From contig OX638340.1 in assembly GCA_951812955.1 (NCBI GenBank), positions 3,424,001 to 3,488,000 on the forward strand: DNA of 64,000 bases, in the 5' to 3' direction. This DNA is from an uncultured Gemmatimonadota bacterium (lineage in GTDB: Bacteria; JAAXHH01). The number at the start of each line of letters is the position of its first letter. The first letter of the stretch is position 1. Shown piece by piece: positions 18,285 through 37,849 of this stretch. The notes under the pieces were generated by a model that did not search any database, was not told the DNA's origin, and saw only the letters and a list, made by a program, of their open reading frames with translations. The position numbers and the translations under genes were made by a program.

Positions 18285-18424
18285 TCAGCCAGCGCTGCCG
18301 GCAAGGCAACCAGCCCGGCCGGACACCGGCGAGTCCGGCAATCAGCGCGTCCGAAAATCGGTGTGTCCGAATACGTGAGCCTGCGCGGCCGGAATTCAGC
18401 GCGTCCCGGATCGCACCGGCGCGG

Positions 18425-20458: not shown

Positions 20459-20687
20459 GATCGTGCATACTAAGCCCCCCGAAGGCGCCGTGTCAAGTTA
20501 CTCCTCCGGTCTCGAGATCCTGGCGGCGGTGTGATCACATCTCTGGAGAATCCGGGATCGTTGACATGGTTCATACAGCCGTCTATATTCCGTTCGCTTG
20601 CCGATACACACCTTAGTGAACAAGCGAAAGTGAATAAGCGGATCCTTCGCGGAATCGAATTCAATAAGTTTCAGAGAGGAGCCTTTG

Positions 20688-21776
20688 ATGTCCACGGTCT
20701 ATCGCGTCGGCATAATCGGGTGCGGCAGCATCTCGCACCTCCACATGAAGGGATACCTGGGCGAAGAGCGGTTCGAGGTCGTCGCACTATCGGACCCGGT
20801 TGCCGAGGCCAGGAAGGATTTCGGTGACCGCTACGGAATCGAAAAACGCTATGCCGATGTCCGTGAGATGATGGACACCGAGGGCCTGGACGTCGTCAGC
20901 ATCTGCACCTGGCACAAGCTGCACGCCCCCCTGACCATCGCCGCCTGCGCGCGTCGGCCGAAGGCCATCCTGTGCGAGAAGCCCATGGCCGTCAACATGG
21001 GGGAGTGCGACGAGATGATGATCGCGGCGCGGCGGAACGACGTGAAGCTCGCCATCGCCCACCAGCGCCGTTTCAATCCGGTCTGGACCGACGCCCGGAA
21101 CCTGGTGGCGGAAGGGGCGATCGGCGACGTGCGCCACGTCCACTGCAGTGGCAGCCAGGGCCTGCTGAACGACTGCTCCCACATGTTCGATTTCATGCGC
21201 TACGTCCTGGGCGATCCCGCGCCGGAGTGGGTGATGGGGAACATCGAACGCAAGACCGACCGGTACGAGCGGGATATCCGCATCGAGGACCGCAGCGCGG
21301 GAATCGTGGGCTTTGACAACGGCGCCGTGGGACAACTCCTGCAGGAGCTTCATCCGGAACGCCGCCAGGGCGGTTACCTCTACGGAACTGACGGCATGAT
21401 GGACGTGAACGAGCAGCGCGTTCTGCTTATCAATTCGAAGACCGGCGGCTGGGAGGAACGGCCGTCCACCGGCGAGGATCCGAGTGTGGGCCAGGCCGTG
21501 GAACTGGCTGACTGGATCGAAGGCAAGTCGGAACACCGGGGAGAGGCCTCGAACGGCCGGGCTGCCGTGGAGATCATCATGGGGATCTACGAGTCGGCGC
21601 GGCTTCACGAGGTCGTCCAGATGCCCGTGCGCACCCACAGTTCGCCCATCGAGGAAATGCTCGAGGCTGGCGACCTGCCCGTGGAACGCCCCGGCCGGTA
21701 CGACATTCGCGCCTTCCTCCTGCGCGGGGAGTCCATGCAGGGTGAGGAGCCGGACGAAGAAGATGAGGAAGAATGA
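20688..21776 (+). CDS. Gfo/Idh/MocA family NAD(P)-dependent oxidoreductase
   Basis: Rossmann motif VGIIGCGSISHLHMKGY. EKP motif LCEKPMAV. Acidic C-terminal tail EEPDEEDEEE. Confidence 0.8.
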   Translation: MSTVYRVGIIGCGSISHLHMKGYLGEERFEVVALSDPVAEARKDFGDRYGIEKRYADVREMMDTEGLDVVSICTWHKLHAPLTIAACARRPKAILCEKPMAVNMGECDEMMIAARRNDVKLAIAHQRRFNPVWTDARNLVAEGAIGDVRHVHCSGSQGLLNDCSHMFDFMRYVLGDPAPEWVMGNIERKTDRYERDIRIEDRSAGIVGFDNGAVGQLLQELHPERRQGGYLYGTDGMMDVNEQRVLLINSKTGGWEERPSTGEDPSVGQAVELADWIEGKSEHRGEASNGRAAVEIIMGIYESARLHEVVQMPVRTHSSPIEEMLEAGDLPVERPGRYDIRAFLLRGESMQGEEPDEEDEEE

Positions 21777-21791
21777 CCGGTCACGGTCCCG

Positions 21792-21866
21792 TGACCACGC
21801 TCAGACCGACGAGACCCGCGACCACGCTCAGACCGACGAGGCCCGTGACCACGCTCAGCAGGGCGA
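21792..21866. repeat. 27-bp tandem repeat x~3 immediately 3' of the Gfo/Idh/MocA gene
   Basis: gaccacgctcagaccgacgagacccgc x2 plus a partial copy. Preceded by the perfect hairpin ccggtcacgg-tc-ccgtgacc. Confidence 0.75.
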
Positions 21867-21930
21867 AGTTCGATCCGAGGCGGATATCGGCGGAGCAGGC
21901 GACGGTGCACAGATCGGCGAAGCACGCAAA

Positions 21931-22929
21931 ATGGCGGAGATCGGCCGAACGGGGTTGATGGTCAGCCGCCTGGGTCTGGGCGGCGCACCGCTGGCCGGTC
22001 TGTACCAGGGGGTTTCCGACGAGCAGGCCTCCCGGGTTGTGAACACCTACCTCGATCACGGCCCCGGATTTATCGACACGGCCCCGCTCTACGGCAGCGG
22101 CGTGAGCGAGACAAGGTTGGGCGCCGTACTATCGGAGCGAGTCCGCAATGCGCGCGTATTCTGCGACGGTCGCGGTTCCTTTGTGCTCGCCACCAAGGTG
22201 GGCCGCCTCCTCGTGCCCGACCCGGCGCGGGACCAGGACGTGTGGTCTGAGGATCTCCCGCCCGTCGGCCCCGTCTTCGACTACAGCTACGACGGCACGC
22301 TACGGTCTCTCGATGAGAGTCTCGCTCGCCTTGGCCTGGATAAGGTGGATATCCTCCATATCCACGACCCGGACAACCACTACGATGAGGCGATGAGGGG
22401 CAGCTACCGGGCGCTCGTAAGAATGCGCGACGAGGGAGTCATCCGGGCGGTCGGCGTTGGCATGAACCAGGCGAAAATGCTGGCCCGTTTTTCCCAGGAA
22501 GGTGACTTCGACTGTTTTCTTTGTGCGGGCAGATACACCCTGGTGGACCACACGGCGCTCAAGCGGCTGCTGCCCCTGTGCGAAGAACGCAAGATCAGCC
22601 TCATTATCGGCGGGCCCTACAACAGCGGCATCCTGGCGCAGGGCGCTGTGGAAGGGGCGAAGTTCGATTACCGGAAAGCACCGCCCGGGATCGTGGAGCG
22701 GGTTCGTCGCGTCGAAACGGTGTGCGGCCGCCACGGCACGCCCCTGAAGGCGGCGGCGCTGCAGTTCCCCCTGGCCCATCCAGCGGTGGCAGCGGTCATT
22801 CCGGGTGCGCGTTCGCCTGAGGAAGTGGATGAGAACGTGGCGATGGCGGAGTTTGAGATTCCGGCGGATTTCTGGGCGGAACTTCGACAGGAAGGGTTGA
22901 TCCCTGACGAGGCGCCCACGCCCGGATAG
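21931..22929 (+). CDS. aldo/keto reductase family oxidoreductase
   Basis: MAEIGRTGLMVSRLGLGGAPLAG... The track ORF began 149 codons upstream, inside the tandem-repeat region, and was trimmed. Confidence 0.8.
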   Translation: MAEIGRTGLMVSRLGLGGAPLAGLYQGVSDEQASRVVNTYLDHGPGFIDTAPLYGSGVSETRLGAVLSERVRNARVFCDGRGSFVLATKVGRLLVPDPARDQDVWSEDLPPVGPVFDYSYDGTLRSLDESLARLGLDKVDILHIHDPDNHYDEAMRGSYRALVRMRDEGVIRAVGVGMNQAKMLARFSQEGDFDCFLCAGRYTLVDHTALKRLLPLCEERKISLIIGGPYNSGILAQGAVEGAKFDYRKAPPGIVERVRRVETVCGRHGTPLKAAALQFPLAHPAVAAVIPGARSPEEVDENVAMAEFEIPADFWAELRQEGLIPDEAPTPG

Positions 22930-23128
22930 TGAAGTAGGTCGCATGTATATCTAAAAACGCGGAAAAATATATTGTCAATATTGATGAAAATAACAATCAA
23001 CCTATAAATCCGGTTTTGATATATATGAGGGACGCCCCTCGCCACGGTCCGCTGCCGGTAGTGTGCGCCTCGCGCCCGGCTGGCTCCGTGCCCCTCAGTC
23101 CGCGAAACGCACTTGAAAGGAGATCCCA

Positions 23129-23485
23129 ATGACCGCATCTGAGAACGCATCTGAAGCCACTCCCCAACGCTATGGCATGGTCCTCAAGGTCAAGCCTGAC
23201 CGGATCGAGGAATACAAGGCATACCACGCCGAGGTCTGGCCCGGCGTTGCGAAGAGGATCACGGAAAGCAACATCACCAACTACTCCATCTATCTGAAGG
23301 ACGATTACCTCTTCTCCTATTTCGAGTACGTCGGGGACGATTTCGAGGCGGACATGGCTAAAATGGCCGCCGACCCGGTCACGCAGGAGTGGTGGGACGT
23401 GATGATGCCGATGCAGGACCCCCTGCCAACGCGGAAGGAAGGCGAATGGTGGGCGAATATGGAGGAAGTCTTTCACCAGGATTGA
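23129..23485 (+). CDS. rhaM: L-rhamnose mutarotase
   Basis: AAAGGAG RBS. YGMVLKVKPDRIEEYKAYHAEVWPGV...NYSIYLKDDYLFSYFEY...WWDVMMPMQ...EEVFH matches the RhaM family end-to-end. Confidence 0.75.
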   Translation: MTASENASEATPQRYGMVLKVKPDRIEEYKAYHAEVWPGVAKRITESNITNYSIYLKDDYLFSYFEYVGDDFEADMAKMAADPVTQEWWDVMMPMQDPLPTRKEGEWWANMEEVFHQD

Positions 23486-23778
23486 GTACAAACACTTCCC
23501 AGACGGACTTTCATATGTTCGTTCGTCTTAGACCGTTGCCAATGAACCGATTGTCGATTATGTTTTCGGGTACTACCCATCCGGTATTGTTTGAGAAATA
23601 ACAGTCCGGTATTGTGCGAGTACTACTCATCCGGCATCGTGCGAGTAATTCTTTTCAGGTATTGAATGAACGCACCAATGATAAGGTTTGAGAAAAGTTA
23701 ATGATGAGATTAAAGAAGAGTTTTAAAAGAAAACTCAGGATATCATAGGAAAACATAGGAGAACATAGGAGAACGTCC

Positions 23779-24672
23779 ATGGCCCTGACTGAAGCGCAAC
23801 TGGCTGAATTCCACGACCGCGGATTGGTGGTCGTGGAAGACGTGCTGGCCGACGCCGATCTCGATCCCGTGATCGACGCGATGACGGAGTATGTCGACCT
23901 GCAGGCACGGAAACTGCAGGCCGAGGGCAAGATCGCCGACCTGCATGAAGACGAACCCTTCCTGACACGATACGCCCGGTTGTTCGCCCAAAGCACGGAG
24001 ATCGGCCACGGGATGGATATCTACGACCTGCGGGCGAAGGCGGTCTTCGATTTCCTGCGGAACGACAACCTGCTCGACGCCGTGGAATCCCTGGTGGGAT
24101 CCGAAATCACCTGCTCGCCGATCCAGCACCTGCGGGCCAAGCCGCCGTCCCGCCTTGACGCCAGCCCGTCCTATAACGTGCCCTGGCACCAGGATTCCGG
24201 GGTGAGCTGGGCGGAGTCCGACAAGACCCTGGCGCTGACCTGCTGGCTGCCCCTCGTGGACGCCACGGTGGAGCGGGGCTGCCTGGAGGTGATCCCGGAC
24301 GTGATCAAGGTCGGCCATCTCGACCACGTGTCGGACGCCGGAACGCGTATAAAACCGGACCTCATGCCCGAGACCGAAGCGCTACCGGCTGAAGTGCGCA
24401 AGGGCGGGGTCGTTTTCCTGAGCCAGTATACACCGCACCGTTCGACGCCCAACCTGACGCAGTGGGATGTGCGCTGGAGCCTTGACCTGCGGTACGTGGC
24501 CTACGGTGAGCCGACTGGGCGGCCCTTCTTTCCCGATTTCTGCGTGCGGAGCCGCACCCATCCTGAACGGGTCCTGACCGATCACCAGGTCTGGGCCGAC
24601 AGCTGGGTCGCGGCCCTTGAGGAACAAATACGCAATCCCAAGCAGGCCCACCGTGTCGCCCAGGAACCCTGA
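23779..24672 (+). CDS. phytanoyl-CoA dioxygenase (PhyH) family Fe(II)/2-oxoglutarate oxygenase
   Basis: LTEAQLAEFHDRGLVVVEDVL... WHQD His motif and C-terminal His. The RBS region carries three copies of aacataggag. Confidence 0.7.
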   Translation: MALTEAQLAEFHDRGLVVVEDVLADADLDPVIDAMTEYVDLQARKLQAEGKIADLHEDEPFLTRYARLFAQSTEIGHGMDIYDLRAKAVFDFLRNDNLLDAVESLVGSEITCSPIQHLRAKPPSRLDASPSYNVPWHQDSGVSWAESDKTLALTCWLPLVDATVERGCLEVIPDVIKVGHLDHVSDAGTRIKPDLMPETEALPAEVRKGGVVFLSQYTPHRSTPNLTQWDVRWSLDLRYVAYGEPTGRPFFPDFCVRSRTHPERVLTDHQVWADSWVAALEEQIRNPKQAHRVAQEP

Positions 24673-24709
24673 GGACACCTGATCCAAGAGGCACACCATG
24701 CTTTGAGGC

Positions 24710-24919
24710 CTGACCTCAGGCGCCAGGTTCGGCGCCCTTCTCGGCAGTCTGATCATTCCCGGTCTGGGACAGTTGTACCAGGGTCGCAGGCCGGCCGCGG
24801 TCATACACTTCATCCTCGCGGTCGTGATCTGGTTGATCGGCTACGGCTGGATCGTTCATCTGTATTCCGCGGTCGACGCGGCATTTCAGGCACCGCGCGG
24901 CGAAGGCTGCAAAACGTAA
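24710..24919 (+). CDS. possible small membrane protein (PGLGQLYQG motif)
   Basis: Open frame ...LGSLIIPGLGQLYQGRRPAAVIHFILAVVIWLIGYGWIVHLYS... ending at TAA 24917-24919. No ATG start (CTG or other non-canonical start only). Low confidence. Confidence 0.25.
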   Translation: MTSGARFGALLGSLIIPGLGQLYQGRRPAAVIHFILAVVIWLIGYGWIVHLYSAVDAAFQAPRGEGCKT

Positions 24920-24941
24920 ACCTTACAGTCCTGGTTACGGT

Positions 24942-25058
24942 GAACGCATCGGCGCCCGCCGGCAGGGGTGCGCGTCTCTGATCGCATCGGCGCCCGCTGG
25001 CAGGTGCGCGTCTATGAACGCATCGGTGCTCGCCGGCAGGGGTGCACGTCTGCGAACC
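24942..25058. repeat. ~40-bp tandem repeat x3
   Basis: gaacgcatcggcgcccgccggcaggggtgcgcgtct(ctgatc) repeated three times with variants. Confidence 0.75.
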
Positions 25059-25098
25059 ATAAACCAGACAAACCACATTCAACAGGAAGAGGTCATGC

Positions 25099-25965
25099 AT
25101 GAGTTTCGGTAACGGGGCCTACAGGTACGAGGTGCAGGAAAACTGGTGGAAGCTTCCTGAAGGGTGGTCCTTCGGATGGATAACCGGAGTCGCCTGCGAT
25201 TCAAAGGACCAGGTGTACGTCTATTCCCGAAGCGAGCATCCCCTGGTGGTCTTCGACCGCGACGGAACGTTTGTCAAGACCATCGGCGACGGCATACTGA
25301 AGGACGCTCATGGTATATACATCGACGGAGAGGACAACATCTTCCTGGTCGACTGGCTGGACCACTGCGTCCGCAAGTTCGACGCGGACGGGAACCAGGT
25401 CCTGGTGATTGGCACGCCCGGTGTTCCGAGCGACAACGACGGTGATCCTTTCCGCAAGCCGACGGAAGCGGTCGTCGCGCCGAACGGAGATATCTACGTG
25501 TCCGACGGGTACGACAACGCCCGGGTACACCGGTACGACGCCGAAGGGAACCACATCCACTCCTGGGGCAGCTGGGGTGACGGCCCCTCCCAGTTCGCGC
25601 TGAGCCACTGCGTCCGCATTGACCGGCATGACCGGCTGTGGGTGTGTGATCGTGAAAACCAGCGCATCCAGCTATTCGACCTGGAAGGCAAGTTTATCGA
25701 GGAGCGACACGTTCCTGGCAAACCCGACACCGTCTACTTTGATCCGGTAGAAGATATAGCGTACGTGGCCGAGCTGGAACAACAGGTGGGTATCTACACC
25801 CTGGACGGCGACCTGGTCAGCAGCTGGGGCGGCGGTAAGCGGAGCGATCGGCCGGGCGAATTCGCCGGCTGTCCCCACGGCATCTGGATGGACTCCCACG
25901 GCGACCTCTATGTCGGCGAAGTTCAGGCCGACGCCAGGCTGCAGAAGTTCGTGAGATCGAGGTAA
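25099..25965 (+). CDS. NHL-repeat beta-propeller protein
   Basis: 288 aa. Repeated ...VYVSDGYDNARVHRYD..., ...LWVCDRENQRIQLFD..., ...DLYVGEV... blades typical of NHL repeats. Confidence 0.7.
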   Translation: MSFGNGAYRYEVQENWWKLPEGWSFGWITGVACDSKDQVYVYSRSEHPLVVFDRDGTFVKTIGDGILKDAHGIYIDGEDNIFLVDWLDHCVRKFDADGNQVLVIGTPGVPSDNDGDPFRKPTEAVVAPNGDIYVSDGYDNARVHRYDAEGNHIHSWGSWGDGPSQFALSHCVRIDRHDRLWVCDRENQRIQLFDLEGKFIEERHVPGKPDTVYFDPVEDIAYVAELEQQVGIYTLDGDLVSSWGGGKRSDRPGEFAGCPHGIWMDSHGDLYVGEVQADARLQKFVRSR

Positions 25966-26070
25966 TTAGGCAATCGAGGACACTCGGCGACCGAGGTAAT
26001 CCGGCAATCGAGGACACTCGGCGATCGAGGTAATTCGGCAATCGAGGACACTCGGCGACCGAAGTAATAC
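25958..26070. repeat. 36-bp tandem repeat x3 anchored on the NHL gene's stop codon
   Basis: Copy 1 includes the last codons and the TAA of the NHL gene. Unit cgaggtaatccggcaatcgaggacactcggcgac. Confidence 0.8.
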
Positions 26071-26210
26071 GTGCGATCGGGGGAATACGCAGTACGGTTC
26101 CGGTCGACGAGTCCTCAGGTCCTACAGATTCCCTTCTGGCCCTGCAATTCCACGTAGCAGATCCCTTCTAGGTTTAGACCAGGATTCACCAAAACCTCCG
26201 GCTGCTGGAA

Positions 26211-28613
26211 ATGACCGATACTGACGAACGACATCGTGATACCCGCACGGACCGAGACCGGCTCGTGAGGCTGAGCCAGGCCAGTCTGCGCATAAGCGAA
26301 AGCCTGGATGTCGATACCGTGCTGCACGAGGTCGTGGAGAGCGCGTGCGAATTAACGGGTGCCGCAGCCGGGGGGATCGTCGCGGTGGATCACACAGGAA
26401 GTGTAAAGGATTTCGTTACGTATGGGGTGCGTCCCGAGGAGTACCAGAAGTGTCTTGACCTGCCGATCGGACCGAGATTGTGGGAAACCCTTCGCCGGTT
26501 GACGCAACCGCTAAGAATCAACGACCTTTCGTCCCATCTCGTATCGCAGGGTTTTCCTGACGATCCATGGCTGGCCCGGAGCTTTCTGGGTGTGCCTGTT
26601 CGGCATCAGGGCGATTTCATCGGATTCTTCTGTCTTACCGACAAGAGAGCTGGTGAGACCTTCACTGACGAAGACGAGGGGATCCTGGTCCTGTTCGCTT
26701 CTCAGGCCGCCGCCGCGATTGTCAATGCCCGCAGGCATGGCGAAATGCAGCGGGCAAGGGCCGACCTCGAAGTTTTGATCGACACCTCTCCCGTGGGTGT
26801 AGTGGTATTCGATGCCAGAACCGGAAAAATAACATCGTATAACCGGGAGACGCAACGCATTGTGGAGGAGCTCCTGGATCCTGGCCAGCCGACCGAAGAA
26901 CTAATGGACATACTCAGTGTGCAGCGCGCCGATGGACGTGAGATCGTGCTGGAGGACTCCGATCCGGCCGAGGTGTTCATGGACGCCACGGCGATCCGGG
27001 CCGAGGAGATTGTCCTCGTCGTTCCGGACGGACGAAAAATATCCACGCTGGTCAACGCCACCCCGATCTGCACCGAAAAGGGCGAGGTGGAGACGGTGGT
27101 CGTCACCTTGCAGGACATGACGTCCCGGGAGGACCTCGAGCGCATGCGTACCCAGTTCCTGGGCATGGTGAGTCACGAACTGAGAGCGCCGCTTACGTCG
27201 ATCAAGGGTTGCGCGGCTACTGCGTTGGGGACCCCGTCGATACTGGATCCGGCCGAGGTCCGGCAGTTTTTCCGCATCATCGATGAACAGGCGGATAACA
27301 TGCGTGAACTGATCGGCGACCTGCTGGATGCGGTCCACATCGATACAGGCACACTGTCTGTAACCCCGGAACCTGTGGAACTGGCTATCATGCTGGACCA
27401 GGCCCGTAACATGTACTTGAGCAGCGGAAGGAGAAGTCCGGTCAGTGTTGATCTGCCGGCTGATCTGCCGAAGGTGAAGGCGGACCGGCAGCGCGTCATA
27501 CAGGTGCTGGTGAATCTCCTATCCAATGCCTCCCGGCACGCGCCCGAGTCGTCTACGATACGGGTACAGGTGGTGCAGGAAGACTACCATGTAGCAATTT
27601 CAGTAATCGACGAGGGCCGGGGGATACCAGAGGATCGCCTGCCCCACCTGTTCCAGAAATTCGTTCAAAGTGGCCGGGAGGACCGCGGCCGCGGCGTAGG
27701 GGAGGGCCTCGGGCTGGCGATATGCAAGGGTCTGGTAGAAGCGCATGGTGGCCGAATCTGGGCTGAAAGCGAAGCCGACGGACTCGGCACGCGATTCACG
27801 TTTACTTTACCCGTGGTTGAAGTGGCCAAAGCAGAATTCGAAGTGACTTCAACAGGGCCCGAAGTGACTTCAACAGGGTCCGAAGTGACTTCAGCACGGG
27901 AGAAAGAGGGCAAGGATCGGAGAGTCCGGCATACGCCTTGCATACTCGCGGTGGATGACGATCCGATGGCTCTGGGACAGATCCGGGAGATCCTCAAGGG
28001 CGCGGGATTCACGCCACTTATCACGGGAGATCCCAAAGAGGTGCCGGACCTGATAGAAACCCGTCAGCCCGACCTGGTACTGCTGGATCTGCTGCTGCCG
28101 AAGAGCGATGGGATCGAACTGATGCAAAGCGAGCCTGCCTTGGCTGATCAGCCGGTCATCTTCCTGTCGGCGTACGGCCGGGACGAGACCATAGTCAAGG
28201 CCCTGGAAGTGGGTGCGGTCGACTACATAGTCAAGCCGTTCTCACCGTCGGAACTCGTGGCCAGGATACAGTCGGCACTTCGTAAGCATGACAGCGCGCC
28301 AGAGCCATTTCAGTCCGGCAGTCTCTATATCAACTATGAAGAACGGAATGCCGTTCTGGATGGCCGGCCACTGAAGCTGACCGCCACCGAGTACGGTCTG
28401 CTCAGGTTGCTTTCAGTCAACGCGGGTCGGGTGGTCACCCATGACAAGCTGCTACGTAGTGTGTGGCGGTCGAGTAAACCTGGTGACGCCCGGGTGGTGC
28501 ACGCGTTCGTGAAGAAACTCCGCCAGAAGCTGGGCGATGAAAGCAGCAATCCTACCTACATTTTCACCGAACACCGGGTTGGCTACCGAATGGCACGACC
28601 GGATGATGCATAA
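26211..28613 (+). CDS. all-in-one two-component regulator: GAF-PAS sensor / histidine kinase / receiver / OmpR-type winged-helix DNA-binding domain
   Basis: 800 aa. GAF (LRISESLDVDTVLHEVVESACELTGAAAGGIVAVD...). PAS. HisKA H-box MVSHELRAPLTSIKG. HATPase_c (VIDEGRGIP...GLGLAICKGLVEAHGG). Linker with 21-bp repeats (EVTSTGPEVTSTGSEVTS). REC (ILAVDDDPMALGQIREIL...VLLDLLLP). C-terminal trans_reg_C (LTATEYGLLRLL...VKKLRQKL...YIFTEHRVGYRM). Confidence 0.85.
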   Translation: MTDTDERHRDTRTDRDRLVRLSQASLRISESLDVDTVLHEVVESACELTGAAAGGIVAVDHTGSVKDFVTYGVRPEEYQKCLDLPIGPRLWETLRRLTQPLRINDLSSHLVSQGFPDDPWLARSFLGVPVRHQGDFIGFFCLTDKRAGETFTDEDEGILVLFASQAAAAIVNARRHGEMQRARADLEVLIDTSPVGVVVFDARTGKITSYNRETQRIVEELLDPGQPTEELMDILSVQRADGREIVLEDSDPAEVFMDATAIRAEEIVLVVPDGRKISTLVNATPICTEKGEVETVVVTLQDMTSREDLERMRTQFLGMVSHELRAPLTSIKGCAATALGTPSILDPAEVRQFFRIIDEQADNMRELIGDLLDAVHIDTGTLSVTPEPVELAIMLDQARNMYLSSGRRSPVSVDLPADLPKVKADRQRVIQVLVNLLSNASRHAPESSTIRVQVVQEDYHVAISVIDEGRGIPEDRLPHLFQKFVQSGREDRGRGVGEGLGLAICKGLVEAHGGRIWAESEADGLGTRFTFTLPVVEVAKAEFEVTSTGPEVTSTGSEVTSAREKEGKDRRVRHTPCILAVDDDPMALGQIREILKGAGFTPLITGDPKEVPDLIETRQPDLVLLDLLLPKSDGIELMQSEPALADQPVIFLSAYGRDETIVKALEVGAVDYIVKPFSPSELVARIQSALRKHDSAPEPFQSGSLYINYEERNAVLDGRPLKLTATEYGLLRLLSVNAGRVVTHDKLLRSVWRSSKPGDARVVHAFVKKLRQKLGDESSNPTYIFTEHRVGYRMARPDDA

Positions 28614-28892
28614 AGAGTGGATTTTCGACGAACTGAAGTGTGAATTACCGACAACGTAATGTGTGGATTTACGACGGAACGCACTTCTTTGAATACGATC
28701 AGTCCATTACGGCATCGGGCCGCTCCTCCTGACCTGTCGATGCACCTTTCCTGCTGGAAGCTATTTCACCGGTAATTGTCTTTCCATGTGGCCCCCTCAC
28801 TTTCTCCTTGATAATATCCCTGCCGTTTCATCATTTTAGCTATTCGTTTTTGACACTCCATTGATACTCCTGACTCCAGTATAGGGGCGTTC

Positions 28893-29723
28893 ATGCGTAT
28901 CATCGACCCCCACACCCACGTCTGGATCAACGACCCCGCCTTTCCCTGGCCGGCGGAAAGTACAGGCCAGGTCCCCGAGGACAGGACGGCGGAGATGCTC
29001 CTTGACCTGATGGACCGTCACGGCGTGGAGAAGACTGTCCTGGTTCAGTATATCGGATTCCGATGGGACAACTCGTACGTGTCCCACGTTCTGCGCAAGT
29101 ACCCCGACAAATTCGCTGGGGTCTGCCGCGTCAATCCCGAAGATCCGGCCGCGCCGGACCACCTGAGCCACTGGGTGGAAGAACACGGATTCCAAGGGGT
29201 GCGGCTCAGCCCCTCCGCGGGACCGGAAGGAGACTGGTTCACGGGTCCCCTCATGCCGCCGATCTTCCGGCGCGCCGAGGACCTTCGTGTACCACTGCTC
29301 ATGCTCACGCGTCCCGGACGTCTTACGGACCTGGCCCGGCTTTTGGACCGCTTTCCGGATCTCGACGTGGTCGTGGACCACATGGCCGACGCGCGCCCCG
29401 ACCGTCCGGAGGAGATCCGGGCCGTCCTCGACCTGGCGCGGTACCCTAACGTCTACGTGAAGATCAGCCATACGTGGTCCATTTCGAATCAGGACTATCC
29501 CTGGCCGGACACCCATGACATGGTCGAGGCGGTATACCAGGCCTTCGGAGGACGCCGTATCATGTGGAGCACCGACTGGCCTGTCTGCCTCCCGAAGGCC
29601 GATTACGGCCAGACCCTTTCCGTCGTCCGCGACGAGATGCGGTTCATCTCACCTGAAGATCTGGTCCGCGTGCTGGGTGGCACGGCCCTGGGGCTGTGGA
29701 CCTTCGAAGATCGGAAGGCCTGA
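28893..29723 (+). CDS. amidohydrolase_2 family metal-dependent hydrolase (sugar-acid lactonase-like TIM barrel)
   Basis: MRIIDPHTHVWINDPAFPWP... HxH and downstream His/Asp pattern of PF04909. Confidence 0.7.
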   Translation: MRIIDPHTHVWINDPAFPWPAESTGQVPEDRTAEMLLDLMDRHGVEKTVLVQYIGFRWDNSYVSHVLRKYPDKFAGVCRVNPEDPAAPDHLSHWVEEHGFQGVRLSPSAGPEGDWFTGPLMPPIFRRAEDLRVPLLMLTRPGRLTDLARLLDRFPDLDVVVDHMADARPDRPEEIRAVLDLARYPNVYVKISHTWSISNQDYPWPDTHDMVEAVYQAFGGRRIMWSTDWPVCLPKADYGQTLSVVRDEMRFISPEDLVRVLGGTALGLWTFEDRKA

Positions 29724-30013
29724 AGTGATCAATCGGCCAGGGGCACGATTCCAGGGCACGCTGCCGGGCCGCATGCGGAATGGTCACCGCGTGAACCTTG
29801 ATTATATTAGTCGGAAGAGTCATGGCAGTTCTCGAATAAAAAACTTAAAACCGCAGAAACTGCGGCATTTTCGGTATCCGCAGCAACTTTAGCATCTGGA
29901 GTACCAGTAGCATCCGCGTGAACCGCGTGAACCGCGTCAACTGCGGCACCTGTAGCAACCACGGCATCGATAGCATATGATGAACGCACGATATCACGCT
30001 CAAAGGAGTACCC

Positions 30014-30781
30014 ATGAATATCCTGATCACCGGCGCCGCGAGCAGGCTGGGACAAGCGGTGGCCGAGGCCCTTCAAGGCCACATGCTTCGCCTCATGGAC
30101 GAGTCGCCCGTCGACCTGCCCGGGGAGGGCGATACCGTCGACGTGCCTGCGGAAAGCGATTCCGTCGAAGGCAGCCTGCTGGACCAGGACTTCGTATGGC
30201 GGGCGGTCCGCGGCATGGAAGCCGTCATCCACACGGGCGAGCCTCCTCAGGACCTTCCCGAGTCCGACGTGGAGCGCGAGAAGCACCTCCTGGAACTGGC
30301 TACGAGGGGCACCCACCAGCTCTTCAAGGCCGCTGTGGAGGTCGGCGTCAAGCGCTTCGTCTACGGCGGAACCCTCGACCTCTTCCGGCCCTATCCCGAC
30401 GATGTTTACATCAGCGAGCTTTGGAAGCCGCTGCCCGAACCGGACATGCCGGCCATGTCCCGCTATCTGGGAGAGCACACCGCCCGGGAATTCGCCCGGG
30501 ACTACATGGTGACGGTCACGGGGCTTCGTCTGGGGACGCTGGTCTGCGAGGAGGAAGTCGCCGGCCAGGCGCCCGACCTGCTGTGGCTGGACTACCGCGA
30601 CGCCGCCCAGGCCTTCAAACTGGCCCTGGAGCGCGACGCCTCGGACCAGGTATGGTGGACGAGCCGTTACGCCATTTACCACGTCTGCGCCGACCTGGAG
30701 AATCCGAAATACCTCATCAACCAGGCCCGCAACCTCGGCTACGCGCCGGTCCACAACTTCGCCGCAAACTGGAAGGACTGA
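30014..30781 (+). CDS. NAD-dependent epimerase/dehydratase-like SDR
   Basis: MNILITGAASRLGQAVAEAL Rossmann start. 255 aa. Confidence 0.7.
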   Translation: MNILITGAASRLGQAVAEALQGHMLRLMDESPVDLPGEGDTVDVPAESDSVEGSLLDQDFVWRAVRGMEAVIHTGEPPQDLPESDVEREKHLLELATRGTHQLFKAAVEVGVKRFVYGGTLDLFRPYPDDVYISELWKPLPEPDMPAMSRYLGEHTAREFARDYMVTVTGLRLGTLVCEEEVAGQAPDLLWLDYRDAAQAFKLALERDASDQVWWTSRYAIYHVCADLENPKYLINQARNLGYAPVHNFAANWKD

Positions 30782-30906
30782 GGCGCGGCAACGGAAATGA
30801 AATCCCGGAGCGGCCATGGCCTGCCGGTCGTTGTAACCGGCCGTAGTAAACGGTAGTTGCACCGGCCGCGCTAGTCCGGCGTTTCAACAATCGTGAGGAG
30901 ACGTAC

Positions 30907-31629
30907 TTGAAGAAAATCCTGCTGCTTGGCGCGTCCGGACTCATCGCGCCACATATCATCCCTGTGCTTGAGAAGGATTACGACCTGCGGCTGGCCGACA
31001 TCAAGGACCATCCGGACGGAAAACCGATCCAAACCGTGGACGTGCGCGACTACGGCCAGGTGCGTGAGGCCGTGGAGGGCATGGACGCGGTCATGAATTT
31101 CACGGTCCTGCGCCATGACGACACGCTCAGTTTTCAGGTCAATACCATCGGGGCGTGGAACGTCATGAAAGCGGTGGCCGACGCCGGCATCAAGAAAGTG
31201 ATCCATACCGGTCCAGCCCAGACGCTCCTGTTGTATGCCCATGATATGGACGTCCCGGTCGACGCTCCCGACGCGCCGTCCAGCGACTACTACTTCATCA
31301 CCAAGCATCTTTCAAACGAGATCGTCCGGAGCTTCGCCCGGCGGCACGAAATCCACACGGTCTGCTACCTGTTCCAGGGCCTGGCGCCCCGGCCGACTGA
31401 ACCCGCCAGCAAAACGTCGACCCGGGACTTCCTCATCATCTATGACGACCTGGCCGTGGCCTGCCGCCAGGGACTCGAACTCCCTTCGGTGCCCGGCTTC
31501 TACCAGGCGTTCAACCTGCACAGCCATTACGGGCCGGGCAAGTACAACCTGGAAAAGGCAGAGCGCATCCTGGGATACGCCCCGCAGGAGGCCTGGTGGG
31601 ATTGGCAGCGGAGGCCGACGGAAGATTGA
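30907..31629 (+). CDS. NAD-dependent epimerase/dehydratase-like SDR (paralog of the preceding gene)
   Basis: TTG start after GAGGAG RBS. KKILLLGASGLIAPHIIPVL Rossmann motif. Overall similarity to the 30014 product. Confidence 0.65.
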   Translation: MKKILLLGASGLIAPHIIPVLEKDYDLRLADIKDHPDGKPIQTVDVRDYGQVREAVEGMDAVMNFTVLRHDDTLSFQVNTIGAWNVMKAVADAGIKKVIHTGPAQTLLLYAHDMDVPVDAPDAPSSDYYFITKHLSNEIVRSFARRHEIHTVCYLFQGLAPRPTEPASKTSTRDFLIIYDDLAVACRQGLELPSVPGFYQAFNLHSHYGPGKYNLEKAERILGYAPQEAWWDWQRRPTED

Positions 31630-31756
31630 GGTTGGTGGACCTGGCAGCGGCGGCCAGTGGATCAGCGGACGCAGGATTCGGTTGTTTTAAGTAGCGTGGG
31701 GACGGGAACAGGTATTAAGGAGTTGACCAACGACGGGTAATTATGCAGTGTCTATT

Positions 31757-31984
31757 TCATCCAACGTTCGACACCGAACTCAGGCCTCTCAAGAACCAAC
31801 CTGCCAGAACACCGACGATAGCAATGATGATCTTAAGTACATGATCCACTGTTCTCTCTCGACGACGTACACCTTCTTCCAATCGTCCAATTGATCGACC
31901 TATTTCCAGGATGCCCGTATCAAAAGAAGAGCTATGTGACCGTTGTGCTAATTGTTCAAGTATTCCTCTGATATCCTGACTCAC
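31757..31984 (-). CDS. hypothetical small protein with C-terminal transmembrane helix (second gene of the cassette)
   Basis: 75 aa. GTG start overlapping the upstream stop. C-terminal LKIIIAIVGVLAGWFL helix. Confidence 0.35.
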   Translation of the reverse strand: MSQDIRGILEQLAQRSHSSSFDTGILEIGRSIGRLEEGVRRRERTVDHVLKIIIAIVGVLAGWFLRGLSSVSNVG

Positions 31985-32250
31985 CCTACAGCTCCTGGAG
32001 AACGAATATAGGCTTGTTCACAAATCTGTTCGGGAGAGTCCAGAACGATGAAGTAGACCTGTTCGTGTAGCCCTTTTCCTGTCGTTTTCCTGACCTGTTG
32101 CTCAGCTTCTTGGAATATACGTTTGACATCAATTTGTATCGGCTCCAAGTTGGGCAAATACACGACAATAGCCGGATACTCATTTCCATCTCGGAATAAG
32201 GTCTTGACCTTGTACTCATATCCTTGTGAGGTCTCTGTTAGTTGTGTCAT
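31981..32250 (-). CDS. hypothetical protein (first gene of a low-GC two-gene cassette)
   Basis: 89 aa, no recognisable domain. Lies in a conspicuously AT-rich island (31690-32440). Its stop overlaps the start of the next ORF (GTGA). Confidence 0.4.
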   Translation of the reverse strand: MTQLTETSQGYEYKVKTLFRDGNEYPAIVVYLPNLEPIQIDVKRIFQEAEQQVRKTTGKGLHEQVYFIVLDSPEQICEQAYIRSPGAVG

Positions 32251-32446
32251 ATCAACCTCTCACCGATCTTCGATACGTGTTTTAAAACTTCCCGGTCGCG
32301 TTCCCAAATAGTCGAGATAAACCGGAAAATCTCGGACTGTTTTTATAGATGAAAGACATTATGAATTACAAGACAAATGAAATCGTTTGCAAAAGGATGC
32401 CAATTTAGTAACAAAATCACTCCCACCTGACAAGGAGATTCGTTAA

Positions 32447-33517
32447 ATGCCCAGTACCGCCCGTACCGTACGCGTGTTCGTCGGAACCTATACCCAGACC
32501 ACCAGCAAGGGTATCTACGTATATGACGTCGATACCGCCACCGGCGTCATGGAATACGTCAGCCACGTGGAAGGCATCACGAATCCGTCCTTCCTGACCC
32601 TGACGCCCGACGCCCGCTTCCTCTACGCCGTCGGCGAGACGGGCGATCCCCACGGCGGCGTCTTCGCCTATGCCGTGGACGCGTCGGGTTCGCTGACGCC
32701 CCTGAACAACCAGTCCTCCGGGGGATCCGGCCCCTGTTCCATCGACGTGCACCGCAGCGGAAAGGCCGTGCTCGTGGCCAACTACGGCGGCGGGTCCGTA
32801 TCCTCCTTTCCCGTGAACGATGACGGATCCCTGGGCGAGGCGGCATCGGTGATACAGCACACTGGCTCGAGCGTCGACCAGAGCCGCCAGAAGGAACCCC
32901 ATGCACACATGATCCGCCACGACCTGGATTACAACTTCGTATTCTCGCCGGACCTGGGTACCGACAAGGTGATGATCTACGTCCTCGATTCGGACACGGC
33001 CGTGCTGACCCCCCACGGGGAGGCTTCCGTACCGCCCGGATCCGGACCCCGGCACATCGAGTTTCATCCCAATCGCAGGTTCGCTTACGTAATCAACGAG
33101 ATGGGCAACACGATCACGGCCTTCGCCTATGACGGATCGGCCGGTACGCTCACCGCGATGGAATCGGTGACGACGCTTCCAGACGGTTATGACGAGGTCA
33201 GCCACACGGCGGACATCCATATCACCGACGACGGCCGGTACCTATACGGCTCCAACCGGGGTCACGACAGCCTCGCCATGTACGCCGTCGACGGGGATTC
33301 GGGCCGCCTGACGCCCCTCGGCATCGTGCCCACGGGCGGCGAAAACCCGCGCAACTTCGGGATCGATCCGACCGGCAGCTTCGTACTCGTCGGCAACCAG
33401 AGCTCGGATACGGTCACCTACCACCGTCTCGACCCGGACACGGGTCTTCTCCATCTCTCGGGCATCGTGGCCGAAATCCCCATGTCGGTGTGCCTGAAGA
33501 TGATTGTGGTGGACTGA
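32447..33517 (+). CDS. 7-bladed beta-propeller lactonase (6-phosphogluconolactonase / 3-carboxymuconate-cyclase-like)
   Basis: VRVFVGTYTQTTSKGIYVYDVD... and repeated blade pattern of Lactonase_7bladed (PF10282). Confidence 0.8.
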   Translation: MPSTARTVRVFVGTYTQTTSKGIYVYDVDTATGVMEYVSHVEGITNPSFLTLTPDARFLYAVGETGDPHGGVFAYAVDASGSLTPLNNQSSGGSGPCSIDVHRSGKAVLVANYGGGSVSSFPVNDDGSLGEAASVIQHTGSSVDQSRQKEPHAHMIRHDLDYNFVFSPDLGTDKVMIYVLDSDTAVLTPHGEASVPPGSGPRHIEFHPNRRFAYVINEMGNTITAFAYDGSAGTLTAMESVTTLPDGYDEVSHTADIHITDDGRYLYGSNRGHDSLAMYAVDGDSGRLTPLGIVPTGGENPRNFGIDPTGSFVLVGNQSSDTVTYHRLDPDTGLLHLSGIVAEIPMSVCLKMIVVD

Positions 33518-33700
33518 ACCCGGCCGATGTGCGCGCAACGCCGAAACCCAGAGTCCGGCAATCCGGACCTCGCCCGCCCGGACGCGTCCCCCCAGGACGC
33601 CTCCCGACAGGACCCCGCCCGCCCGGGCGCCTCCCCCCCTGACCCCGCGCGGCAGGACCGGGCCTGGTGGGAGTTCGTCGACCGGTCGCGGCGCGAGTCC

Positions 33701-35848
33701 ATGCCCTTCGAGGCCCACCTGGCGGCTTTCAGGCGCATATTCGAAGGGCGCCGGCCGGAGGACGGGCCGCCCGTGGTCTGGGCGCCCGACGAATCGGTAC
33801 GCCGCCGGTCCAATCTCCAGGCGAGCATGGCAGCCGTGGGCATCGACGAGTATGACGATTTCCACGCATGGTCCGTCCGCGACCGCACCGCCTTCTGGAC
33901 CCACACCCTCGAACGGCTCGGGATCGTATTCACGAAACCTCCGGACGCCATTCTGGACACGGGTGGAAGCGTCCGGGACCCCCGGTGGCTGCCGGGCGCG
34001 GAACTCAACATCGTCGACAGCTGCTTCACCGCGGATCCCGCCCGTCCCGCGGTCGTCACGCCCGGTCCGGACGGCCAGCCGCTTGTCAGGACATCCTACG
34101 GCGAACTGGAAGGCCTCGTCAACCGCGTCGCCAACGGCCTGCGCGACCGGAACCTGGCGCCCGGTCAGGCCATCGCGCTCTACATGCCGCTGAACCTGGA
34201 ATGCGTGATCGCCTACCTGGCCATCATCCGCGCGGGTTCGCACGTTGTCTCCATCGCCGACAGCTTCCCGGTATCGGAGGTCCGGCGTCGCATGGCCATT
34301 GCCGGCGCGAGCTGTGCGGTCACCATGGACCGGTACGTCCGCTCGGGCAAGACCATACCGCTCTACGACACGGTCGCCGAGGCGGGCGCGTCCACGATCA
34401 TCGTCGTGCCGTCCGGCGGCGCCACACCAGTGGACGATGTCCTGTCTCCAGGTTGCGCCGCGAAATCGGGCGATGTGCCGCCACCGGGCGCTGACGATTC
34501 CGCGGCCACATCAGATTCGTCCCGGCACCACCCCGCCGACGCTTCCACTGCCGCATCGAACGCGCCCCGACTCCGTCCGGGCGACATCGCCTGGTCCGAC
34601 CTCCTCTCCTCTGAAGACGTCTTTGAATCAGTGACGGGCGACCCCTATCGCACGACCAATATCCTGTTCTCCTCGGGAACCACCGGCGAGCCGAAGGCCA
34701 TTCCGTGGAACCATCTGACCCCCATCAAGAGCGCCATGGACGGATACTACCACCAGGACGTCCACGGGGACGACGTCACAACCTGGCCGACCAACATCGG
34801 CTGGATGATGGGGCCGTGGCTCATCTACGCCACCCTGATCAACGGCGCGTGTATGGCCCTGTATCCGGGCGCTGCCAATACCGCCGAATACCTCCGGTTC
34901 CTCCGGCGCGCCGGGGTTACCATGCAGGGCGTCATTCCCTCCCTGGTGCGGACCTGGAGGCGCGGCGGCGCGGCCGAGAACATCGACTGGCCGTCCATCC
35001 GCGTATTCAGTTCAACGGGTGAGCCCGCCAGCCGGGCCGACTACCTGTGGCTCATGAGCCGGGCCGGTTACCGGGCGCCCGTGATCGAATACCTCGGCGG
35101 CACCGAGATAGGGGGCGGCCACCTGGCCTGCACGGTGTTGCAACCTTGCTCACCCGCGGTATTTACCACGGCGAACCTGGGTGTGGATTTCGCTATCCTG
35201 GACGAGACCGGCGCGGAGGTCGGAGAGGACGGTACGGGCGAACTCTTCCTTATGCCCCCCGCATTGGGCATGTCTCAGCGGCTGCTCAACGGAGACCACG
35301 ACGCAGTCTATTACGAAGGCTGTCCGGCCGGACCTGAAGGCAGAATACTGCGTAGGCACGGGGACAATACGCAGAGACTTCACCAGGGTCGTTTCCGGGC
35401 CCAGGGAAGGGCGGACGACGGAATGAACCTGGGCGGCATCAAGATCAGCCCCCTTGAACTGGAACGGATCGTGGACGGACACCCCGCGGTCTACGAGAGC
35501 GCGGCCGTAGCGGTGCAGCCCGAGGGGGAAGGGGCGGAAAGGCTCGTCGTTTTCGTCGTTCAAGAAGGCGGAGACGGCCCCGCAAGTTTTCGAGCAGATG
35601 CCAGGGCGGGTTCATCGCCGATTAGCCAGGCCGACACATCCCCTGCCGTCCCAACCGATTCACATGCCGGCCTTGATCACGATCTCGACCCCAATGCGCT
35701 TAAGTCGGAACTCCAGGACATGGTCTCCTCCGGACTGAACCCGTTGTTCAAAATCTACCACGTCATCGTAGTGGACGAACTCCCCCATACCGCTTCAGGC
35801 AAGCTGGTCCGCCGTATTCTGAGAGATCGGATGAAGTCAGGCGACTAG
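33701..35848 (+). CDS. AMP-dependent synthetase/ligase (acyl- or acetyl-CoA synthetase-like)
   Basis: AMP-binding motifs ILFSSGTTGEPKAI, YGGTEIGGG, and C-terminal GKLVRRIL. Start taken at MPFEAHL (33701). An in-frame upstream ATG at 33527 would add a Pro/Asp-rich repeat extension. A low-complexity insert sits near the C-terminus. Confidence 0.7.
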   Translation: MPFEAHLAAFRRIFEGRRPEDGPPVVWAPDESVRRRSNLQASMAAVGIDEYDDFHAWSVRDRTAFWTHTLERLGIVFTKPPDAILDTGGSVRDPRWLPGAELNIVDSCFTADPARPAVVTPGPDGQPLVRTSYGELEGLVNRVANGLRDRNLAPGQAIALYMPLNLECVIAYLAIIRAGSHVVSIADSFPVSEVRRRMAIAGASCAVTMDRYVRSGKTIPLYDTVAEAGASTIIVVPSGGATPVDDVLSPGCAAKSGDVPPPGADDSAATSDSSRHHPADASTAASNAPRLRPGDIAWSDLLSSEDVFESVTGDPYRTTNILFSSGTTGEPKAIPWNHLTPIKSAMDGYYHQDVHGDDVTTWPTNIGWMMGPWLIYATLINGACMALYPGAANTAEYLRFLRRAGVTMQGVIPSLVRTWRRGGAAENIDWPSIRVFSSTGEPASRADYLWLMSRAGYRAPVIEYLGGTEIGGGHLACTVLQPCSPAVFTTANLGVDFAILDETGAEVGEDGTGELFLMPPALGMSQRLLNGDHDAVYYEGCPAGPEGRILRRHGDNTQRLHQGRFRAQGRADDGMNLGGIKISPLELERIVDGHPAVYESAAVAVQPEGEGAERLVVFVVQEGGDGPASFRADARAGSSPISQADTSPAVPTDSHAGLDHDLDPNALKSELQDMVSSGLNPLFKIYHVIVVDELPHTASGKLVRRILRDRMKSGD

Positions 35849-35952: not shown

Positions 35953-36167
35953 CGAACTTTTTACGAAAACACGAAAAACACCCTTTGACATATACCTTTA
36001 TTTATCAGATATTTCACAATACCTCATGACGGAGTAATCATATCTCCGGAAGTATCCTTCGGTAAAGTAGGTAACACTCTTCCAGCCAACGGCTTTCCCA
36101 TCCTTACTAAAATCGTCAAATGGGCGTGTAGGTATAATCCCACATTGTCCCCTCCGAAAGGATTGTC

Positions 36168-37343: not shown

Positions 37344-37544
37344 CGGCACCTTACATTGTGGTCTGAGCTGGTTTTCCGAGTGAATTGAAGCGGGATACAC
37401 CGCGCACAAGCCGTTATTCATAGCGTACATCCTAGTAGTTACGGCAGTGAAAAGAACACAGACGGCGGCAAGCGCCTGGATGAATACGATCTGTTTCCGA
37501 ACACTCGAACTTCTCGCGACAATTAGATCTGCTCTTGCCCGTTG

Positions 37545-37790
37545 TTACTGCGTGTGCTCTCCGTGAACGCCGGCCGGGTGTTGACCTTTGACGTCCTGAT
37601 CTCCCAGGGTCTGGGGAGAATATGGCTACGCCAACCACAAACTGGTGCGCAGCCTGATTAAATCGCTCCGCCGCAAGATCGGTGACGACGCGCGCACTCC
37701 GGACTACATCCTCAACGTGCGCGGGGTCGGGTACCGAATGGCCCGGTCCGTGGAACTCAATGTGGAAACTCTAGCGCGGGATATCCCTGC
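37545..37790 (+). pseudogene. remnant of the C-terminal (OmpR-type wHTH) end of a paralogous all-in-one histidine-kinase regulator
   Basis: DNA aligns with 48556-48790 of the intact paralog (LRVLSVNAGRV..., ...LRRKIGDDARTPDYILNVRGVGYRMARSVELNVE) but carries a 2-nt deletion/frameshift and lacks everything upstream. Preceded at ~37440-37500 by a minus-strand fragment of the coiled-coil gene N-terminus. Confidence 0.6.
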
Positions 37791-37849
37791 GGTTTAATGC
37801 ACCTGGTGCGGATGACCTCGCTCCGCTCTGCAGATCAGGTCCATAAGGC

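Follow-up and report, generated by a model that had tools for sequence, protein, structure and literature searches.

The 64,000-nucleotide window analyzed here, meaning the whole stretch from position 3,424,001 to 3,488,000 of contig OX638340.1 (assembly GCA_951812955.1, an uncultured Gemmatimonadota bacterium), encodes three paralogous proteins in which sensor, histidine kinase, receiver, and DNA-binding domains follow one another in a single polypeptide. Copy A (26211 to 28613, plus strand, as are all features of this gene) is an open reading frame (ORF) of 800 amino acids. Its N-terminal helix is followed by a GAF domain (26304 to 26720; residues 32 to 170), a PAS domain (26763 to 27125; residues 185 to 305; Pfam PAS, 1.3e-07), a HisKA dimerization and histidine phosphotransfer (DHp) domain (27144 to 27350; residues 312 to 380; Pfam HisKA, 5.9e-15), and an HATPase_c domain (27483 to 27815; residues 425 to 535; 5.3e-31). 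A tether (27816 to 27941) then leads to the receiver (REC) domain (27942 to 28271; residues 578 to 687; Response_reg, 4.6e-23) and an OmpR/PhoB-type winged helix-turn-helix (wHTH) domain (28362 to 28592; residues 718 to 794; Trans_reg_C, 8.1e-21). The codons of the presumed phospho-acceptors His322 and Asp626 lie at 27174 to 27176 and 28086 to 28088. Copy B (46414 to 48807, plus strand; 797 amino acids) has the same six-domain order (HisKA, 5.8e-16; Trans_reg_C, 1.1e-19). Of copy C (62881 to 64000, plus strand), 373 amino acids comprising GAF, PAS, and HisKA are visible before the window end cuts the gene after HisKA; its syntenic orthologue in a related genome (P0091; 792 amino acids) has all six domains.

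In copies A and B, all Pfam domains (GAF/GAF_2, PAS, HisKA, HATPase_c, Response_reg, and Trans_reg_C) exceed the gathering cutoffs. No membrane segment was found in any of the three copies, the maximum Kyte-Doolittle mean over 19 residues being 1.4. Pairwise protein identities are 53% (A/B), 54% (A/C), and 48% (B/C). An earlier note on this DNA, made from the sequence alone, had described three cytoplasmic all-in-one proteins of shared domain order and one pseudogene remnant. That description stands, by Pfam for copies A and B and through the full-length orthologue for copy C. The remnant (37545 to 37790, plus strand) represents the last ~85 codons of a B-like wHTH. It matches copy B residues 715 to 794 with 67 to 75% identity spread over two frames in tblastn and is therefore frameshifted; at the DNA level it shares 83% identity with the B orthologue's 3' end. 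Together with a leucine-rich repeat (LRR) gene at 36168 to 37343, it shares a strain-specific insertion that is absent from a 95% identical relative.

Operons in which a kinase gene precedes an OmpR-type regulator gene are common, and the fusion might accordingly be an artifact, with two such neighbors merged through a chimeric contig or through an error in sequencing or assembly. Many weaker matches of our genome scan did prove to be adjacent separate genes; inspection of the ORFs behind shorter tblastn matches made us abandon the notion of kinase-REC-wHTH fusions being common across many phyla. For the family described here, however, this explanation is already refuted, and we regard its chance as practically nil. 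A 2.47-Mb long-read contig from another sample, with ~95% identity across most of the window, holds all three genes with the order and neighbors seen here, and the copies are therefore not chimeras, one of the two circumstances that the earlier note had named as undermining its reading. The exact proteins of copies A and B are also recorded on a 3,813,436-bp contig that carries the LptD gene of the window and a fourth paralogue (P0010, 63% identical to A), which brings this genome to at least four copies. The same ORFs recur without interruption in assemblies and samples independent of this one and also in more than 120 homologues, 11 full-length metagenome contigs, and chromosome-level metagenome-assembled genomes (MAGs) of other phyla, and all of the 120 best database matches have the same eight-domain Pfam content. 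Finally, the tether is in frame throughout, and its length changes by whole codons or repeat units.

Residue conservation was judged in an alignment of 15 diverse members and in one of 188 family-like sequences. His322, in the motif SHELRAPL, is invariant in the former (15/15) and present in 164/188 of the latter. Equally invariant in all 15 are the ATP-lid/Bergerat residues N435, N439, D467, G469, G471, F481, G499, and G501 and the receiver residues D582, D583, D626, S653, Y672, and K675, and the residues for His-Asp phosphotransfer in kinase and receiver are kept in 87 to 96% of the 188 sequences. The phospho-accepting His and Asp are thus conserved, as the reading in the earlier note would have it. 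The kinase half shows the features of class I HisKA proteins, namely an H-box His in a DHp helix and a Bergerat-fold domain with N, G1, F, and G2 boxes, and scores best against the PnpS, WalK, and PhoR models. The regulator half shows those of the OmpR/PhoB family (acidic pocket, phospho-Asp, Ser, Tyr switch, Lys, and a C-terminal Trans_reg_C domain), with the typical spacing of the Tyr/Lys switch retained, and scores best against MtrA, RpaB, and PhoB; the REC and wHTH domains of copy A match full-length MtrA (2gwr) from end to end (E 5e-38). No NCBIfam model reaches its cutoff for the family proteins. Every sequence criterion tested marks the proteins as genuine HisKA kinases and regulators of the OmpR/PhoB type. 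The resemblance to PhoR-PhoB, WalK-WalR, and MtrB-MtrA extends to a kinase half with a cytoplasmic PAS domain, HisKA, and HATPase_c and to an MtrA/RpaB/PhoB-like regulator half. In those systems, however, the two halves are separate proteins and the kinase is membrane anchored, whereas here they are fused via a disordered tether and an N-terminal GAF domain is added.

The receiver lies C-terminal to the kinase core, as in the phosphorelay hybrids TorS, ArcB, and BarA. Conceivably, then, it could be a phosphorelay intermediate or phosphate sink that signals to a separate histidine phosphotransfer (HPt) protein and response regulator, the wHTH domain being vestigial or of minor importance. The fused receiver serves this purpose in most hybrid kinases (TorS, ArcB, BarA, LvrA), and such proteins are among the NCBIfam partial matches. 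We nevertheless consider this scenario very improbable. Conservation of the wHTH domain is on a par with that of the remaining domains: R771, G791, Y792, and R793 are present in 177 to 184 of the 188 sequences, and the mean pairwise identity of the domain is 65%. Both the end-to-end match with complete OmpR-family regulators and the switch spacing also speak against this scenario. Furthermore, the HPt domain of the phosphorelay hybrids is absent: Pfam detects none in the family proteins, none occurs among the annotated neighbors, and no HPt or partner regulator gene adjoins any copy examined, although a distant partner is possible.

We therefore favor the reading that these genes encode functional, soluble regulators of the hybrid two-component type, and we think it probable that they sense a signal, autophosphorylate, transfer the phosphoryl group to themselves, and bind direct repeats in DNA. 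The intramolecular transfer, the DNA binding, and the targets are put forward by analogy; for phosphotransfer and DNA binding we infer them from the well-established behavior of HisKA kinases and OmpR/PhoB regulators. The protein would act as a soluble cytoplasmic homodimer whose GAF-PAS module senses an intracellular signal, a ligand at GAF and/or PAS setting the activity of the kinase. The signal would travel via continuous helices to the PhoR/WalK-like HisKA core, which would autophosphorylate on His322. The phosphoryl group might then cross the ~30- to 40-residue disordered tether to Asp626 of the protein's own receiver, in the same molecule or within the dimer. The phosphorylated receiver may release or dimerize the OmpR/PhoB-type winged helices, which could then bind direct repeats and control transcription.

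The pattern of divergence among the paralogues differs from what the earlier note had reported. Its contrast of similar linkers with divergent GAF/PAS regions was overstated, since copies A and B are 50% identical in GAF and 54% in PAS versus 62 to 63% in HisKA, HATPase, and REC, whereas the linker between HATPase and REC is only 12% identical and differs in length. This kinase-receiver tether is the only hypervariable part of the protein. In copy A it includes a 21-bp tandem repeat of 2.6 copies (27839 to 27893) encoding EVTSTG(P/S) units, and a 95% relative (P0002) has one unit fewer, so that tether length is polymorphic. The wHTH domains of A and B are 49% identical, and their recognition-helix region differs among the paralogues, which fits separate regulons. 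In an AlphaFold (AF2) model the individual domains are confident. The tether (residues 536 to 573) is predicted to be disordered (predicted local distance difference test [pLDDT], 25 to 32), a continuous helix of ~40 residues (153 to 192) would join GAF to PAS, and another (304 to 340) would run uninterrupted from PAS into the H-box. The overall arrangement is unreliable at a predicted template modeling score (pTM) of 0.32; the model is therefore uninformative on receiver docking and uninterpretable for REC-DHp or REC-wHTH geometry. A fold search with it returned segmental matches only.

Among known systems, the hybrid two-component systems (HTCS) of Bacteroides, such as BT4124 and BT1754, come closest in principle. 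They too carry sensor, HisKA/HATPase, receiver, and DNA-binding output in one polypeptide, and they too occur in multiple copies per genome, beside presumed target genes. HTCS, however, reside in the inner membrane, bind glycans through a periplasmic sensor, and have an AraC/XylS (HTH_18) output, whereas the present family is soluble, has cytoplasmic GAF-PAS sensing and an OmpR/PhoB winged-helix output, and gives no HTH_18 match. HTCS are also characteristic of Bacteroidota, whereas this family was found in Gemmatimonadota and in Actinomycetota, Chloroflexota, and Pseudomonadota MAGs. Given that the transmembrane periplasmic sensor and the AraC-type output are both absent, we do not file these proteins as HTCS members. 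Our search of literature and databases yielded neither a paper on the fusion nor a curated family model or a solved structure that spans it, and in the literature the only studied single-polypeptide regulators combining kinase, receiver, and DNA-binding domain are the Bacteroides HTCS. The single-polypeptide two-component principle is thus known; what is new here is its soluble counterpart with an OmpR-type output. Tethering in HTCS is expected to insulate paralogues and to require that the DNA-binding domains be kept silent in the unstimulated dimer (PMC11253607). A soluble GAF/PAS counterpart makes it possible to test for a second time, and independently, how paralogous pathways are insulated by tethering and how a dimeric kinase silences its own DNA-binding domains. 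Such proteins might also serve synthetic biology as compact modules leading from sensor to promoter in one protein.

Among solved structures, the GAF-A domain of DevS comes closest to the GAF domain of the family. The copy A GAF domain aligns with GAF-A of DevS (DosS; PDB 2y79/2w3d/4ynr) at E ~4e-20 and 36% identity over 145 amino acids without a gap (phmmer) and with DosT at 5e-18, the next-best solved GAF reaching only 5e-07, and the shared motifs include FLGVPVR and LTDK. The domain may thus be placed in the fold and sequence family of DevS/DosT GAF-A. This kinship raises the possibility that the proteins are heme-based sensors of gas or redox state (O2, NO, or CO) like DevS/DosT of M. tuberculosis, in which case they would report oxygen swings in sponge tissue. 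Beyond the match itself, the position of DevS Tyr171 (numbering anchored on the E87A and E87G mutant entries) is Tyr in 122/188 and Phe in 51/188 sequences (Cys in A, Phe in B), that of His139 is His in 120/188, and in the copy C clade a His directly precedes the equivalent of His149. The residues that hold the heme, however, speak against it. The proximal ligand His149 corresponds to Pro119 in A and to Leu in B; only 13/188 sequences have His at this position, and 33/188 have any His within 3 residues of it. The Glu87/His89 network is likewise missing, aliphatic residues taking its place. Outside the GAF domain the resemblance ends as well: DevS has a GAF-B domain, HisKA_3, and a separate NarL-type regulator, DevR, whereas here PAS, HisKA, REC, and an OmpR-type wHTH follow in the same chain. 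With these ligand residues absent, we dropped the heme-sensor reading of the GAF domain. Heme binding in the manner of DevS is unlikely, and a role as heme-based gas or redox sensor appears improbable. No inference was made about a PAS ligand, as no solved relative of this domain was found at E<0.1. Related GAF domains occur in other contexts. Giant proteins of 1,450 to 3,800 amino acids (P0138, P0142, P0160, P0169, P0207, P0239, and others) contain 7 to 17 tandem GAF domains ~24 to 31% identical to that of the family, and loci L086, L092, L094, L098, and ~100 others encode proteins of 380 to 600 amino acids with the same invariant GAF columns (30 to 40% identity) in which the rest of the architecture is absent. 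These shorter proteins seem to form a separate and abundant group, and by their names the contigs may be soil metagenomes.

The results of our genome scan (one genome per species) and of the DNA pattern scan of metagenome contigs are the matches listed, and the counts are hence lower bounds. The sensor module alone retrieves 650 clusters at the 50% identity level (E<=1e-30), and full-length matches are mostly 775 to 825 amino acids long. Full-length relatives with 44 to 53% identity include, among the matches listed, two chromosome-level Acidimicrobiia assemblies, one Acidimicrobiia MAG, a chromosome-level Dehalococcoidia assembly, a Silicimonas MAG, and a Gammaproteobacteria MAG, and a Chloroflexota family protein is also named in NCBI. 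Overall, identity to relatives in these other groups (Acidimicrobiia, Dehalococcoidia/Chloroflexota, and Alpha- and Gammaproteobacteria MAGs) is 44 to 59%. The metagenome scan added at least 11 full-length and at least 7 truncated members, ~100 other pattern matches being shorter proteins that share only a related GAF. These data do not support the proposal in the earlier note of a lineage-specific expansion, as there are full-length relatives in several phyla and each window copy is 66 to 84% identical to proteins of other genomes versus 50 to 58% to its in-genome paralogues. Copy B, for instance, is 59% identical to a Gammaproteobacteria protein versus 53% to A and 50% to C, and one Acidimicrobiia protein is 62% identical to a Chloroflexota protein and 55% to another Acidimicrobiia protein. 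Judged by these identities, similarity within the family does not follow phylogeny. The GC content of the family genes tracks that of their flanks (r=0.67), so that any transfers were not recent, and recent horizontal transfer as judged by composition was rejected. Rather, horizontal exchange with subsequent amelioration seems to account best for the distribution. The family, with members in several phyla and multiple copies per genome, is old and diverse.

Several further observations touch on this distribution. In L010, L011, L032, and L007 (Alphaproteobacteria, Dehalococcoidia, SAR202, and Vicinamibacterales) only the C-terminal REC-wHTH or the catalytic and ATP-binding domain with REC-wHTH matched, at 48 to 54% identity; these may be remnants or stand-alone derivatives. 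Within the window, GC content is 0.52 to 0.55 at 36000 to 48000 and 54000 to 58000 versus 0.60 to 0.65 elsewhere, the low-GC stretches coinciding with Big/LRR/M66 and collagen genes, and the GC content at third codon positions is 0.67 to 0.72 in the regulator genes versus 0.79 to 0.85 in their metabolic neighbors. Both features are consistent with accessory or acquired islands.

As to habitat, the metagenome members with an identified source, among the matches listed, all derive from MKWU, LXNI, or LXNJ (Aplysina, Sarcotragus, or Petrosia sponge metagenomes). For the LptD of the window, named relatives with 71 to 72% identity carry the annotation Gemmatimonadetes/Gemmatimonadota. The named regulator relatives include Candidatus Palauibacter, whose species names refer to the sponges Ircinia and Rhopaloeides and the coral Porites and whose order has its highest abundance in sponges and marine sediments (PMC10469786). 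Provisionally, every source-identified member among those matches comes from a marine-sponge microbiome. The signal-transduction and transcription COG classes were found to be depleted in sponge symbionts by Slaby et al. (PMC5649159), and a shared multicopy regulator family is notable in this light.

The genes next to the regulators differ between the copies. Copy A lies within a same-strand cluster (20685 to 35848) that is conserved in the 95% relative (L081) and encodes a GFO/IDH/MocA oxidoreductase, an aldo-keto reductase, the L-rhamnose mutarotase RhaM, a PhyH dioxygenase, a 288-amino-acid NHL/SGL propeller, an Amidohydro_2 protein, two epimerases/dehydratases, a 7-bladed lactonase, and an acyl-CoA synthetase. 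None of the cluster members, including the NHL/SGL propeller and the Amidohydro_2 protein, has a signal peptide, and the cluster looks like one for cytoplasmic sugar/lactone catabolism by a nonphosphorylative deoxy-sugar/lactone pathway. Copy B lies downstream of lipoprotein-like Big/LRR/M66 genes and copy C downstream of collagen/Calx-beta genes, with signal peptides. The statement in the earlier note that each copy sits beside genes for surface or secreted proteins thus applies to B and C, whereas the neighbors of A are cytoplasmic enzymes.

Elsewhere, the neighbors of orthologues are repeatedly large repeat proteins and mobile-element genes. One locus has ankyrin together with integrase, transposase, and conjugation genes, another LRR/M66 and ankyrin, and a third cadherin/LRR/fn3/Calx-beta and NHL proteins with an integrase and IS21. 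In an Acidimicrobiia sponge MAG (SB0668_bin_6; L002:1317-12384), two full-length paralogues less than 5 kb apart bracket a 646-amino-acid Calx-beta/PKD protein, and a second protein of 1,248 amino acids with ten Calx-beta repeats follows the pair, which reproduces the regulator/Calx-beta arrangement of the window in another phylum. Across 28 loci, repeat-protein genes occupy 17/86 of the positions ±1/±2 versus 2 to 4/76 at ±3 to ±6 (Fisher p 5e-4 to 5e-3). Since family genes adjoin genes for large secreted repeat proteins of the LRR, Calx-beta, RCC1, PKD, fn3, and ankyrin kinds more than expected, the latter are the likeliest additional targets of copies B and C, while copy A more likely controls its own sugar/lactone catabolic cluster. 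At L083 (contig ctg240969, 120 kb), the region around the family member looks like an integrative conjugative element, with genes for an integrase, two DNA methylases, a DDE transposase, ArdC, TrbC, VirB3, and a fragment of a restriction enzyme; here ankyrin and FGE-sulfatase genes adjoin the regulator.

Upstream of the regulator genes we searched for DNA sites that might serve as operators. Copy C is preceded by a candidate, the direct repeat TGTGAC-TTTAA-CGTGAT (62745 to 62761, plus strand), with 11-bp phasing, 135 bp before the start codon, and this site is kept in the C orthologue (L082). A weaker candidate site of copy B, GTGATATCGCGTGA (46279 to 46292, minus strand), has 10-bp phasing; as both phasing and strand differ from those of the other sites, we have low confidence in it. 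When all hexamers were scanned without bias at spacings of 7 to 16, the top direct repeat was ATGTGA/TGTGAG at spacing 11, found in 6/24 upstream regions, a number reached in 0/60 shuffles. A fixed-word test on independent loci, with a word that was chosen after the sequences had been inspected, gave 3/22 matches, at -125 to -181 (null mean, 0.08; 3 reached in 0/2,000 shuffles); other spacings yielded a single match (13), the opposite strand none, and coding controls 0/46. In L083 and L085 the promoter-proximal repeat forms a -35-like TTGTGA, 17 bp from TACAAT or TAGAAT. By analogy, this layout would correspond to the pho-box arrangement, pho boxes likewise having direct repeats with 11-bp phasing and the promoter-proximal repeat at -35. 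Regulators of the OmpR/PhoB family characteristically bind tandem direct repeats at a spacing of ~10 to 11 bp. The TGTGAG-like repeat, ~110 to 180 bp before the gene's own start codon, suggests autoregulation in a subset of the family.

The earlier note had also proposed a search for binding sites upstream of neighboring genes, for instance around shared motifs. A 12-mer shared by copies A and C, CCTACAGATTCC, was rejected as an operator. That word lies at 26121 to 26132 (plus strand), 90 bp upstream of A, with an identical copy at 62798 to 62809, 83 bp upstream of C, and the window has no further exact copy. Only ~95% relatives have kept it and every distant homologue lacks it; a relic of paralogous promoters is more likely than an operator.

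Possibly, these strands combine into a wider picture, in which a regulator family of sponge microbiomes, horizontally spread across at least four phyla, is a dedicated switch for eukaryote-like and adhesin repeat genes (LRR, Calx-beta, cadherin, RCC1, PKD, and ankyrin), binding PhoB-style TGTGAG repeats on cue via a heme-less DevS-like GAF domain. We regard this picture as speculative and rather unlikely as a whole. It competes with a view to which we give somewhat more credence, although it too remains a minority possibility in our judgment: the regulators are functional, but the adjacency to repeat-protein genes and the upstream repeat are coincidental, the regulons lying elsewhere and having no special link to host association.

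A number of findings count against our interpretation, some of them against the assignment as functional direct-repeat-binding regulators and others, which favor coincidence, against the proposed targets. About 13% of the aligned family-like sequences have no His at the H-box column, through misalignment or because they are degenerate members, and the inter-domain geometry of the AF2 model is, as stated, unreliable. The neighborhood is not conserved among orthologues, for which reason conserved gene context was rejected as a guide to function. Sponge-symbiont genomes abound in repeat-protein genes, and with the discovery loci removed the enrichment weakens to 8/64 versus 0 to 2/44, which is marginal (p 0.013 to 0.14). 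Only about one upstream region in four has the direct repeat, and that of copy A does not; a hand-picked pattern, GTGA-N6/7-GTGA, was enriched in the discovery loci yet found in 0/18 new metagenome loci and was discarded, and the word of the fixed test was, as noted, not chosen blind. The sponge link rests on matches listed from two scans in which most ENA sources carry no habitat label, and Palauibacterales also inhabit sediments. Coincidence, in turn, does not easily account for the difference between near and distal positions, which holds inside the same loci, for the recurrence of the pattern in another phylum, where two paralogues bracket Calx-beta genes, or for L085 and L148, in which the repeat is located between the regulator and a divergent LRR/cadherin or LRR/PKD gene, in the short intergenic region that both share. 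Repeat-protein genes of this kind are regarded as symbiosis factors, and we know of no regulators of such genes; if the link were true, it would provide a handle on when symbionts deploy their host-interaction proteins.

In a scan of the window for more copies of the candidate operator, a single one came up besides the copy C site, at 32225, which is no more than expected by chance. The site at 32225 is a TGTGAG-GTCTC-TGTTAG direct repeat (32225 to 32241) in the 817-bp intergenic region before the lactonase gene of the copy A cluster. Many intergenic regions of the window also contain short tandem arrays of 2 to 4 copies with units of 13 to 38 bp (mostly 23 to 38 bp), each array distinct in sequence, at 8713 to 8849, 10124 to 10247, 13242 to 13345, 18305 to 18369, 23570 to 23647, 24941 to 25051, 25958 to 26068, 28611 to 28676, 38229 to 38289, and 49430 to 49496. 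The array just upstream of copy A consists of 3.3 copies of a 34-bp unit (92% matches) with an internal 17-bp half-period (ATCGAGG...). Such arrays seem to be common throughout the genome of this organism.

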